A stretch of DNA of 64,000 nt from NCBI RefSeq assembly GCF_030013205.1, contig NZ_CP122648.1, one strand, 5' to 3'. Both the position numbers and the translations under genes were made by a program. Source of the DNA: Escherichia coli. Its GTDB lineage: Bacteria; Pseudomonadota; Gammaproteobacteria; Enterobacterales; Enterobacteriaceae. Position 1 is the first letter of the stretch. The number at the start of each line of letters is the position of its first letter. The notes below the pieces were generated by a model. That model made no database searches and had not been told where the DNA came from. It saw only the letters and a program-made list of their open reading frames with translations. Below are positions 15,589-17,736 of this stretch, one piece after another.

Positions 15589-16696
15589 AACCGATGTTCC
15601 GGGATTGTCTCCATATTTTGACAAAAGAAATAACAAAGTTTACTGGCGTTACAGGCATCCCATAACAGGCAAAAATCACGGTCTCGGCAGTATTGACCAG
15701 AAACTGGCAGAAACTATTGCAGCAGAAGCGAACAGCCGTCTTGCCAGGCAGCAAATGGAACAAATGCTCAGTCTGCAGGAGAAAATTATTAGAGATACCG
15801 GCGGTTCATCAACTGTTTCCAGTTTTCTGAATAATTACAGAAAAATTCAACAGGAAAGATATGAAAACGGAGAAATCAAACTCAACACGCTGAAACAAAA
15901 AGCGGCCCCTCTCAGAGTATTTGATGAACGTTTTGGCACCAGACCGTTAGATGCCATAACCGTAAAGGATGTGGTATCGGTGCTGGAAGAGTACAAGACC
16001 AGAGGACATAACAGAATGGGACAAATTTTCAGGAAGGTACTGATCGATGTTTTCCGGGAAGCTCAGCAAACAGGCGATGTCCCGCCAGGCTTTAACCCTG
16101 CAGAATCGGCAAAAAAACCACAGGTGCGGATATCAAGACAGCGACTGACTTTTGATGAGTGGGTGATGATTTATAACGCAGCGGAAAAGGATGGTTACTT
16201 TTTACAGCGCGGTATGCTGCTGGCACTGATGACAGGCCAGCGCCTTTCAGATATTTGCAAAATGCAATTTTCGGATATCCGGGATGGTTATCTTCATGTC
16301 GAACAGCAAAAAACAGGAGCCCGGATTGCCATCCCTCTGGCTCTGCGCTGCGATAAATTAAATCTCACTCTGGATGATGTGGTGTCATCCTGTCGCGATT
16401 GCGTTCTTAGCCCGTGGCTATTGCACCACCATCACGCGAAAGGGACAGCTAAGCGCGGCGGGATGGTTAAACCAGCAACGTTAACCGTTGCATTTAAAAA
16501 AGCGCGGGATTCTGTGGATTACAACTGGCGTGCTAATGGCACCCCACCCTCTTTCCATGAGCAGAGATCTTTATCAGAAAGATTGTTCAGAGAACAGGGA
16601 ATTGATACCCAAATTTTGCTGGGTCATTCGAATCAAAAAATGACCGATATTTACAACGACGCACGCGGTAAGGAGTGGAAAAAACTGGTTATTTGA
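15566..16696 (+). CDS. int: phage integrase (tyrosine recombinase)
   Basis: 376-aa ORF with lambdoid integrase features, ending 45 bp from the ompW stop. Confidence 0.9.
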   Translation: MARPRKYKTDVPGLSPYFDKRNNKVYWRYRHPITGKNHGLGSIDQKLAETIAAEANSRLARQQMEQMLSLQEKIIRDTGGSSTVSSFLNNYRKIQQERYENGEIKLNTLKQKAAPLRVFDERFGTRPLDAITVKDVVSVLEEYKTRGHNRMGQIFRKVLIDVFREAQQTGDVPPGFNPAESAKKPQVRISRQRLTFDEWVMIYNAAEKDGYFLQRGMLLALMTGQRLSDICKMQFSDIRDGYLHVEQQKTGARIAIPLALRCDKLNLTLDDVVSSCRDCVLSPWLLHHHHAKGTAKRGGMVKPATLTVAFKKARDSVDYNWRANGTPPSFHEQRSLSERLFREQGIDTQILLGHSNQKMTDIYNDARGKEWKKLVI

Positions 16697-16737
16697 TAAC
16701 CAGTTTTGCAGAAGAGTTTTGCAGAGGTTTTGCAGAG
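16681..16737. repeat. prophage-chromosome junction: hairpin plus three tandem GTTTTGCAGA copies
   Basis: Inverted repeat AAAACTGGTTAT-TTG-ATAACCAGTTTT (16681-16707) and GTTTTGCAGA at 16703, 16716 and 16727, between the int and ompW stops. Confidence 0.5.
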
Positions 16738-16741
16738 AAAA

Positions 16742-17380
16742 TTAGAAGCGGTATCCGGCAGAGAACATAAACCCCCAAGGATCCAGTCGTACCGCGTCTT
16801 TCACGGGGGTTCCATTAAATTTATAGCTGGCGGTGGTATCGATATCCATGTACCACACTGACATGTTAACCAACCAGTCACGGTTAATCAGATAATCAAC
16901 CCCCACCTGCCCGGCAGCTCCCCAGGAATCTTTCAGACTGAGATCGGAAAGCCCCGCCTCTTTGCCATGATCGTTAAATCCATTATCAAAGAAGGTGGTG
17001 TAGTTAATACCTGCCCCAACGTAAGGACGGAATTTGCTGCTGGCATCACCAAAATACCACTGCGCCATCAGTGTTGGCGGCAGATGATGAACGGTTGCAA
17101 TATCGCCGGTCGCCCGGGTGCCGATTTTATGGCGGAACGGCGTCGCTGCCAGCAATTCCACACCAATGTTATCGGTCGCCATATAAGTAAACGTCAGGCC
17201 CAGTTGCGTGTTATTGGTCACGCTGAATCCACCCAGACTTCCTAACGTACCACCAGCACCTTCTGTTGGACGTACGGTTGCAGAACCTGCACGCATAAAA
17301 AATTCGCCTGCTTCATGCGCAAAGGCACTGCCAGAGAGAAGAGTTGTTACTGCCAAAGCCGCCACTGTTAACTTTTTCAT
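16742..17380 (-). CDS. ompW: outer membrane protein W
   Basis: 212-aa translation matches E. coli OmpW as I recall it. Confidence 0.95.
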   Translation of the reverse strand: MKKLTVAALAVTTLLSGSAFAHEAGEFFMRAGSATVRPTEGAGGTLGSLGGFSVTNNTQLGLTFTYMATDNIGVELLAATPFRHKIGTRATGDIATVHHLPPTLMAQWYFGDASSKFRPYVGAGINYTTFFDNGFNDHGKEAGLSDLSLKDSWGAAGQVGVDYLINRDWLVNMSVWYMDIDTTASYKFNGTPVKDAVRLDPWGFMFSAGYRF

Positions 17381-17736
17381 ATCCGCTCCGTCGTTATGGT
17401 TATAAAAACGTGACGAATATACCTACATTGGAGTAACAAATGATCCTACATAGATCACATTACATATGATAATTCACCATTTATTGATCTGGATTAATTT
17501 ATAAGTTGCATTGAGAATCCTGGTTAATGTGATTTAAATCAATTTTTAAATATTTTCGCTACGCAAATATTAACTCGACCGCCACTTGCCGCGATTTGCC
17601 CACGTCTGAAGGCCAGCAATTACCTCCGCTTTACAAAGATATGCTTTTCCATACAAGACCTGATGCTGCCACCCGAGGCTTAACCAGGGTACAATTGCCC
17701 GCTAATTAACACCTGCATAAAACTCAAGGAGAGTGC

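Follow-up and report, generated by a model that had tools for sequence, protein, structure and literature searches.

Three tandem repeats and a hairpin at an int–ompW prophage junction in Escherichia coli: a putative outer P' arm of a lambdoid attP fixed beside a hybrid ompW gene

The described systems closest to the int–ompW junction considered here are phage lambda, phage 21, the e14 element, and the PPompW prophages. In lambda, the sites P'1-P'3 lie in the arm beside the 3' end of int, and P1, in the same orientation, lies far out in the other arm. In phage 21 (M61865.1), the int stop codon is followed by three tandem 12-mers, a hairpin, an icd surrogate, the core, and a fourth co-oriented copy. 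The three copies, GTTTTGGGGAA(G/A), stand right after int with a spacing of 13/12, and the fourth is found about 115-120 nt past the icd core with a 0-mismatch IHF site just before it. Schneider is said to have proposed in 1992 that these repeated dodecamers of phage 21 are arm recognition sites, and Wang et al. reportedly found in 1997 that the minimal phage 21 attP had to include the outermost dodecamers. The e14 element, a cryptic prophage of E. coli K-12 that occupies icd, has three GTTATCAAAA copies (TTTTGATAAC in the sense of int) with a spacing of 13/11, a fourth copy in the other arm at about 118 nt from the core, and the surrogate icd 3' end, but differs in having cargo genes (ymfD, ymfE, lit) that separate intE from the repeats. 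The PPompW prophages of STEC/EPEC are integrated in ompW, have a 121-bp attL/R, and gave evidence of excision and attP by PCR after induction (Nakamura et al. 2021, PLoS Pathog, PMC8112680). The 121-bp attL/R of that paper is an imperfect duplication of the ompW 3' end, and arm-type sites have 0 mentions in it.

The window is the whole stretch of E. coli DNA that was analyzed, 64 kb in length, and it contains a prophage int gene that converges with ompW. The features of this junction, in window positions, are as follows.

15340-15588, plus strand: xis, an excisionase gene of 82 aa (Pfam Exc PF07825, E = 4.4e-7; annotated as an excisionase in K_EC180)
15566-16696, plus strand: int open reading frame, 376 aa, with its TGA stop codon at 16694-16696
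16681-16707, minus strand: hairpin with 12-bp arms, a TTG loop, and A6 and T4 on its flanks
16703-16712, plus strand: putative arm-type site, copy 1 of GTTTTGCAGA, exact match, in the P'-arm cluster
16716-16725, plus strand: putative arm-type site, copy 2 of GTTTTGCAGA, exact match
16727-16736, plus strand: putative arm-type site, copy 3 of GTTTTGCAGA, exact match
16742-16841, minus strand: phage-borne surrogate ompW 3' end, comprising the stop codon and the last ~33 codons and forming part of the attP P' arm
16742-17380, minus strand: hybrid ompW open reading frame, convergent with int
16833-16860, no strand assigned: 28-bp attP/attB identity block GTGGTATCGATATCCATGTACCACACTG, from three- and seven-way alignments

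The stop codons of int and ompW are 45 bp apart (spacer 16697-16741), in agreement with the original prediction, which had also placed a 12-bp-arm hairpin and three repeats between them. Both elements are present, but the 5' arm and the loop of the hairpin are inside int. The two arms, 16681-16692 (AAAACTGGTTAT) and 16696-16707 (ATAACCAGTTTT), are 12 nt each and 100% complementary; the 5' arm is made of the last int codons, and the loop overlaps the int stop codon. The first repeat copy shares 5 nt with the 3' arm of the hairpin, and the start-to-start spacing of the three GTTTTGCAGA copies is 13 and 11. The 64 kb contain no further copy of GTTTTGCAGA; 0.28 would be expected, and three or more were reached in 0 of 100 shuffles, so that a chance origin of the triplet is excluded. 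When E. coli lysogens are compared, none of the 30 repeat bases changes, and the 3-nt spacer is either AGA or GGG.

The junction is 100% identical over 601 bp to that of E. coli K_EC180 (NZ_CP062203.1), and the gene coordinates match with an offset of 3551. The far prophage end lies outside the window, and its analysis refers to the K_EC180 record, which is matched to the window over these 601 bp and by gene coordinates. The K_EC180 element is a ~22-kb defective Stx2e prophage that extends from a 126-bp ompW 3' remnant beside yciE to the int/ompW junction; the context of the window element is a swine-type strain. The PPompW family is defined by an integrase with >90% identity and coverage relative to that of O145:H28 PPompW, located at ompW (Nakamura 2021). 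The window Int is 96-98% identical to PPompW integrases, and domain by domain 96-100% identical to the integrase of LC567822 (PPompW), the prophage interrupts ompW in both, and the window element belongs to the family by this definition. The PPompW phage records (LC567818-LC567841) match the junction with 93.9% DNA identity over the int 3' end and the arm, and they resemble it in the site used, the hairpin, the three repeats, and the concept of an ompW 3' surrogate. They differ in a surrogate loop that reads KYKSGVTTVKDS (window SYKFNGTPVKDA), in another variant of the P arm, and in a C:G form of the hairpin. The window prophage is of the published PPompW type, ~22 kb in size, defective, and carries Stx2e. 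The int-repeats-ompW junction occurs, at a query coverage of at least 80%, in 1714 of 5426 complete E. coli genomes.

Comparison with strains that have no prophage at ompW, namely MG1655, Nissle 1917, and the swine strain CFSAN018748, separates phage DNA from host DNA. In each of them, a different terminator (GACCCCGTATATTACGGGGTC) stands between yciE and ompW, and GTTTTGCAG is absent downstream of ompW. The native ompW/yciE terminator GACCCCGTATATTACGGGGTC remains at the far prophage end, where one copy of the repeat is also found. With no repeats beside ompW in these strains and one at the far end, the refutation test set by the original prediction does not refute it. Relative to these strains, the window is host-like only from ~16842 on, and 16742-16841 has diverged. 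In the free phage CP025907.1, the int stop, the hairpin, the three repeats, the ompW-like 3' end, the core, and the P arm form one continuous run, and the same order from int stop to P arm is uninterrupted in several IMG/VR contigs. Because the stretch that leads from the int stop into phage DNA is contiguous in a free phage, it is attP, and 16681-16741 is accordingly its outer, int-proximal (P') arm. Judged from these alignments, the hairpin and the three repeats are all phage DNA. The original view of a prophage junction with ompW as the integration site is borne out, but the junction is not at the ompW 3' end, since 16742-16841 is itself phage DNA and the boundary lies inside ompW.

The position of the crossover can be narrowed within the gene. 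The 28-bp block GTGGTATCGATATCCATGTACCACACTG is the sole sequence common to attP (phage 204576, PPompW), attB (MG1655), and both junctions, and the identity of PPompW attP with attB stops at CACACTG, which corresponds to 16860. At position 16841, the window has the phage-specific G, while the far end and CFSAN018748, an isogenic-like prophage-free strain, have the host A, which puts the exchange to the right of 16841. An attB rebuilt from the left part of the K_EC180 far end and the right part from the window is 100% intact in six prophage-free genomes, and CFSAN018748 matches exactly over 692 nt of the K_EC180 left flank and over 1302 nt of the window from 16846 on. The intersection of the 16841 polymorphism with the end of attP/attB identity at 16860 confines the crossover, on these alignments, to 16842-16860 (ATATCCATGTACCACACTG), inside ompW at codons ~174-180 and about 105-125 bp beyond the hairpin and repeats. 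Near 16844/16845 lies the centre of an imperfect inverted repeat, GTGGTAT-N10-GTACCAC, which suggests a pair of candidate core-type half-sites with a predicted 7-bp overlap such as ATATCCA at 16842-16848. The 45-bp spacer, which had been put forward as the att region, is displaced by this result. The matching att copy anticipated at the far end does exist, as an ompW 3' fragment and not as the repeats, of which that end holds a single motif copy. JJ1886 (ST131) was also considered for narrowing the interval and was set aside, as its ompW allele is divergent, yciEFG is missing, the remnant is different, and host and phage alleles cannot be safely assigned. The narrowed interval appears undescribed in the literature searched, the 121 bp having been left unnarrowed in Nakamura 2021.

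A true prophage boundary inside ompW instead of after it is mostly an annotation matter. The last ~100 nt of 'ompW' and the presumed terminator are phage DNA in ~1,700 of 5,426 complete E. coli genomes, and the shift of the boundary bears on the design of att-site PCR, the typing of Stx-phage insertion sites, and the comparison of ompW alleles.

The three repeats are 105-140 bp from the crossover interval, and the motif recurs in the opposite arm of attP. A fourth exact copy, co-oriented with the others, is present at the K_EC180 far end (L003 40051-40060), where it is the only one in the 45 kb around that end. This copy lies ~118-119 nt past the core; every intact attP has a copy at an offset of +119 in spite of considerable sequence differences between the P arms, and one is also found at the JJ1886 far end. 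An IHF consensus with one mismatch precedes the P-arm copy by ~20 nt at a conserved position, and no IHF site with at most one mismatch was found in the int-side arm. An inverted P2-like copy of the motif was likewise not found in the attP arms, and for want of these two elements the full lambda site set is not reproduced.

An IMG/VR pattern scan for the GTTTTGCAGA triplet, in which gaps of 1-6 were allowed, returned 36 loci. In 32 of them, the triplet follows the int stop by 3-21 nt, and the integrases are ~375 aa long and 45-100% identical to the window Int. The spacing is 13/11 in all 32 despite the range of gaps allowed. The targets at these loci are ompW, icd, or ushA, and the integrases of the icd and ushA elements are ~50-70% identical. 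Since the same triplet stands beside integrases with different targets, the repeats track the integrase rather than the target, whereas core-type sites would be expected to do the reverse. The survey was ascertained by the motif itself, so that the invariance of the 9-mer in it is partly circular, and phage 21 and e14 were for this reason examined independently as non-circular cases. In a protein-based IMG/VR search for Int relatives, nearly all contigs end exactly at the int stop, and the informative ones are L076 and L097. The former provides a natural variant of the third repeat copy, ATTTTGCAGA, and the latter, whose Int is 58% identical, lacks repeats of this kind directly behind int.

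The domain content of the integrase is that expected for a protein with two DNA-binding modes. The N-terminus matches Pfam Arm-DNA-bind_1 PF09003 (E = 7e-22, residues 2-71), and the protein also matches Phage_integrase PF00589 (E = 6e-17) and PF22022. It aligns with the lambda Int structures 5j0n/1z1b in a full-length match (residues 14-375, E = 1e-56). Residues R226, K249, H331, R334, H354, and Y363 are invariant in a 10-sequence family alignment and align with the catalytic region of lambda Int. By these matches, the enzyme is a heterobivalent lambda-type tyrosine integrase with an arm-binding domain. It is 51% identical to phage 21 Int and 50% identical to e14 IntE.

The motifs of the window element, phage 21, and e14 have GTTTTG in common and differ in their 3' halves, and the layout of three copies plus one is alike in all of them; with the loci described above, this 3+1 architecture is family-wide. 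The phage 21 motif is GTTTTGGGGAAG and that of the window is GTTTTGCAGA(A/G)G, and the target is icd in the former and ompW in the latter. The two elements have the P-arm flank TGATTT(C/T)ATTGA in common, and the phage 21 IHF site before the fourth copy occupies the same position as the IHF-like site of the window element's P arm. The hairpin of phage 21 lies between the repeats and the surrogate gene, whereas that of the window lies on the int side of the repeats. The likeness to lambda consists in a heterobivalent Int with PF09003, in three tandem sites on the int side with a co-oriented one far out on the other side, and in core-type sites that are apart from the arm sites. The lambda arm consensus, C/AAGTCACTAT, differs from GTTTTGCAGA, and the lambda target is intergenic. 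The P' sites of lambda are at ~+50 to +85 from the core, compared with ~105-140 in the window, and the longer distance is due to the gene fragment that is interposed. Analogues of the lambda P2, H', and X sites were not identified in the attP of the window element.

These comparisons make the repeats best read as arm-type binding sites for the lambda-family Int, with binding predicted by analogy. They are arm-type and not core-type in this assignment because they lie 105-140 bp from the crossover, are present in the other arm, and are unchanged across targets. The original prediction had offered integrase-binding and core-type sites as alternatives, and of these the first is the most likely and the second is excluded by the distance, the copy in the other arm, and the variety of targets. 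In the proposed mechanism, the N-terminal domains of Int protomers would bind the three GTTTTGCAGA copies, and their C-terminal domains would bind the core ~105-140 bp away. The fourth co-oriented copy by the IHF-like site would let Int bridge both arms to form an intasome, which would serve integration and, with Xis, excision. Integration would fix the P' arm of attP next to ompW. We have considerable confidence in the whole reading, in which 16681-16741 is the outer P' arm of a lambdoid attP, the repeats are analogues of P'1-P'3, and the hairpin is a probable substitute terminator. A lysogen with a fixed attP arm of the lambda/21 type is a standard case and offers nothing new in principle. 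The arm motif GTTTTGCAGRRG seems to be undescribed, a search of the literature for it having returned nothing relevant, and the rest is an ordinary, well-understood kind of feature at a published site. The motif GTTTTGCAG defines an integrase subfamily with shared arm specificity and different targets (ompW, icd, ushA). This subfamily illustrates the modular exchange of arm and core specificity, and from the motif one can predict which prophages of one host could engage in cross-talk by way of their arms.

Other explanations of the repeats have been weighed against this assignment. The repeats adjoin int at an apparent gene boundary, and the 45-bp spacer could on this ground be taken as the att core, with repeats of the core type and a crossover just past the ompW stop codon. 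This is almost certainly not the case, since attB lacks the spacer and the next 100 nt of 'ompW', which are specific to the phage, only 16833-16860 is common to attP, attB, and both junctions, the 126-bp native ompW 3' remnant is at the far end, and phages with icd or ushA as their target carry these repeats too. It is very unlikely that the repeats bind Xis, Fis, or IHF instead of the arm-binding domain of Int. An Exc-family xis does adjoin int, and lambda Xis also binds head-to-tail tandem repeats; however, the motif is found in both arms (3+1), as is suited to bridging by Int, while the Xis sites of lambda are confined to the int-distal arm. The cluster moreover holds the position of lambda P'1-P'3 beside the int 3' end, a separate IHF-like site is present in the P arm, and the phage 21 counterparts are, as noted above, said to have been proposed as arm recognition sites. 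We infer on this basis that Int, in preference to another protein, would bind the repeats. A role in RNA, for example as Hfq or sRNA sites in the ompW 3'UTR, is extremely improbable, as is a functionless product of chance or slippage. The repeats of the lysogen are between the ompW stop and the hairpin and would probably be transcribed with ompW, but phage 21 and the icd/ushA relatives keep them although they lie beyond the hairpin from the host gene and are therefore not in the host-gene 3'UTR there. Conservation across integrases that are ~50% identical argues for an int-linked function, and the 0.28 expected copies and the shuffles given above speak against chance.

The hairpin probably serves the hybrid ompW, and perhaps also int, as an intrinsic terminator that works in both directions, an activity that we infer from its layout and context. 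The native terminator has been left at the far prophage end, and the hybrid ompW consequently needs a new one. On the minus (ompW-sense) strand, the RNA folds with -14.7 kcal/mol (z = -6.1) and can be read as an 8-bp stem, with G/C in it, and a U6 tract behind it once the four closing A-U pairs are assigned to the tail; the hairpin has only 3 G-C pairs. On the plus strand, the folding energy is -21.8 kcal/mol (z = -3.1). A matching A tract on the other side of the hairpin completes an arrangement typical of terminators that serve two convergent genes. Variation in the stem is limited to one compensatory pair, a double change from T:A to C:G (GGTTAT/ATAACC to GGTCAT/ATGACC) in PPompW, JJ1886, and phage 204576, and the window hairpin has the T:A form. 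Phage 21, e14, and the icd/ushA relatives also have a hairpin between int and the end of the surrogate gene.

A palindromic protein site, or an RNase III/retroregulation (sib-like) element on the int mRNA, is an unlikely though credible alternative to a terminator. The palindrome, perfect over 12 bp, runs across the int stop codon, and a symmetric protein site would equally be expected to show the compensatory change. The stem is rich in A and U, and a terminator consensus scan did not report the hairpin; a comparison with Rfam gave a chance match only, far below threshold. Against this stand the classic bidirectional layout, with stem and U6 on the ompW-sense strand and the A tract opposite, the displacement of the native terminator to the far end, and the recurrence of a hairpin in the same setting in phage 21, e14, and the icd/ushA relatives. 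In addition, lambda sib is across att from int and is separated from it by integration, but the window hairpin stays with int in both states. A terminator remains the moderately favoured reading of the hairpin.

The site is internal to the gene, and the phage for that reason carries a substitute for all of ompW 3' of the crossover, both codons and a putative terminator, while the native 126-bp 3' remnant sits at the far prophage end. The surrogate, 16742-16841, diverges from MG1655, is present in the free-phage attP (L006), and adjoins an upstream ompW part that is ~99% identical. The hybrid gene, host in its 5' part and phage in its 3' part, encodes a complete 212-aa OmpW (Pfam OmpW E = 2e-77). 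This protein equals E. coli OmpW (2mhl/2f1t) up to ...MDIDTTA, and the next ~13 residues differ. The surrogate keeps the final beta-strand, ...VRLDPWGFMFSAGYRF, with the stop codon after it, and the ~12-17 residues before the strand are replaced. By OmpW topology, the replaced segment reads as the last extracellular loop. Lysogeny at ompW, which about one in three complete E. coli genomes shows, might then amount to lysogenic conversion, through altered receptor properties of OmpW or through ompW expression coupled to Int occupancy, but we consider this improbable. If it were true, the altered receptor properties could concern colicin S4, OmpW-dependent phages, and antibodies, and the phage would also supply an ompW 3'UTR and terminator holding three Int-binding sites. 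The replaced segment itself is variable: native OmpW has NYKLGGAQQHDS, the window has SYKFNGTPVKDA, PPompW and JJ1886 both have KYKSGVTTVKDS, and in strain H3 it is 5 residues longer.

The phage-borne 3' end of ompW (window 16742-16841), compared with the loci L001, L129, L125, and L004 (the integrase locus of a published ompW-integrated, or PPompW, prophage), keeps both the ...WYMDIDTTA stretch and the last strand, VRLDPW.FMFSAGYRF*, whereas the stretch between them differs from that of the native gene, as listed below.

Variable segment of OmpW.
Native ompW: NYKLGGAQQHDS
Window: SYKFNGTPVKDA
PPompW and JJ1886: KYKSGVTTVKDS
Strain H3: KYKSDGRKLAKGSYSDN (+5 aa)

From the topology of the OmpW barrel (2F1T), we take the replaced segment to be the last extracellular loop, which means that lysogeny at ompW is predicted to exchange one surface loop of this protein.

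The triplet of putative arm-type sites, GTTTTGCAG at a spacing of 13/11, is also found in phages with integrases only ~50-60% identical to that of the window, and these phages integrate at the 3' end of ushA or icd.

Phages carrying the GTTTTGCAG triplet, by comparison locus.
ushA-targeting: L011, L012, L014, L020, L026, L028-L031, L038
icd-targeting: L018, L032, L034-L037

The triplet is thus shared across ompW, ushA, and icd targets, and icd is found as a target both with this motif and with that of phage 21, a distribution which argues that the putative arm and core specificities are separate modules, each exchanged on its own. One integrase with 96% identity has an intact attP (L076 2640-2800) in which the third arm copy is ATTTTGCAGA and the left core half is GGTTGTGTCGATATCC rather than CGTGGTATCGATATCC, so that attP/attB identity is reduced to TCGATATCCATGTACCACACTG. 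A 58%-identical integrase relative (L097 2620-3100) lacks tandem repeats after the int stop; a hairpin (TCTGCATTCAG...CTGAATGCAGA) is present there instead, along with an AT-rich stretch. Cargo lies between int and attP in e14, and a similar insertion in L097 may explain the absence of adjacent repeats.

In some genomes and contigs, the unit of int, repeats, surrogate 3' end, and core is followed by phage DNA, forming an attP-like unit within the chromosome, or by another OmpW-family sequence (examples of such units are L126, from SMN152SH1, and L041). Nakamura et al. (PMC8112680) describe prophages arranged in tandem or as prophage-in-prophage, along with an ompW-like site, 'attB-in-PP_3', and these units are consistent with their description.

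A full-length prophage occupies ompW in E. coli ST131 strain JJ1886 (NC_022648.1), where ISEcp1-blaCTX-M-15 interrupts the tape-measure gene (split gene at L127 35324-38096, NC_022648.1 ~1472324-1475096). The ompW region of this strain is a divergent allele (L124, L128 7159-7360); the host part of the gene is unlike both Nissle and K-12, and the far-end remnant contains a 15-nt insertion and directly adjoins trpA, with yciE, yciF, and yciG absent.

What remains of the prophage (window 1-16696) amounts to ~22 kb in all, and stx2e lies immediately upstream of position 1. A truncated small terminase is joined to remnants of tail fibres, an IS481-family transposase insertion occupies 5188-6261, and a SIR2-family gene and dicA/dicB/dicC/hokD-type genes are also present; int, xis, and both att junctions appear intact. 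Between ompW and yciC, a YkgJ-family pseudogene fragment is annotated (window ~17620-17709), in lysogens and non-lysogens alike. Another intra-prophage attB is derived from the ykgJ/ecpE region according to Nakamura et al. (PMC8112680).
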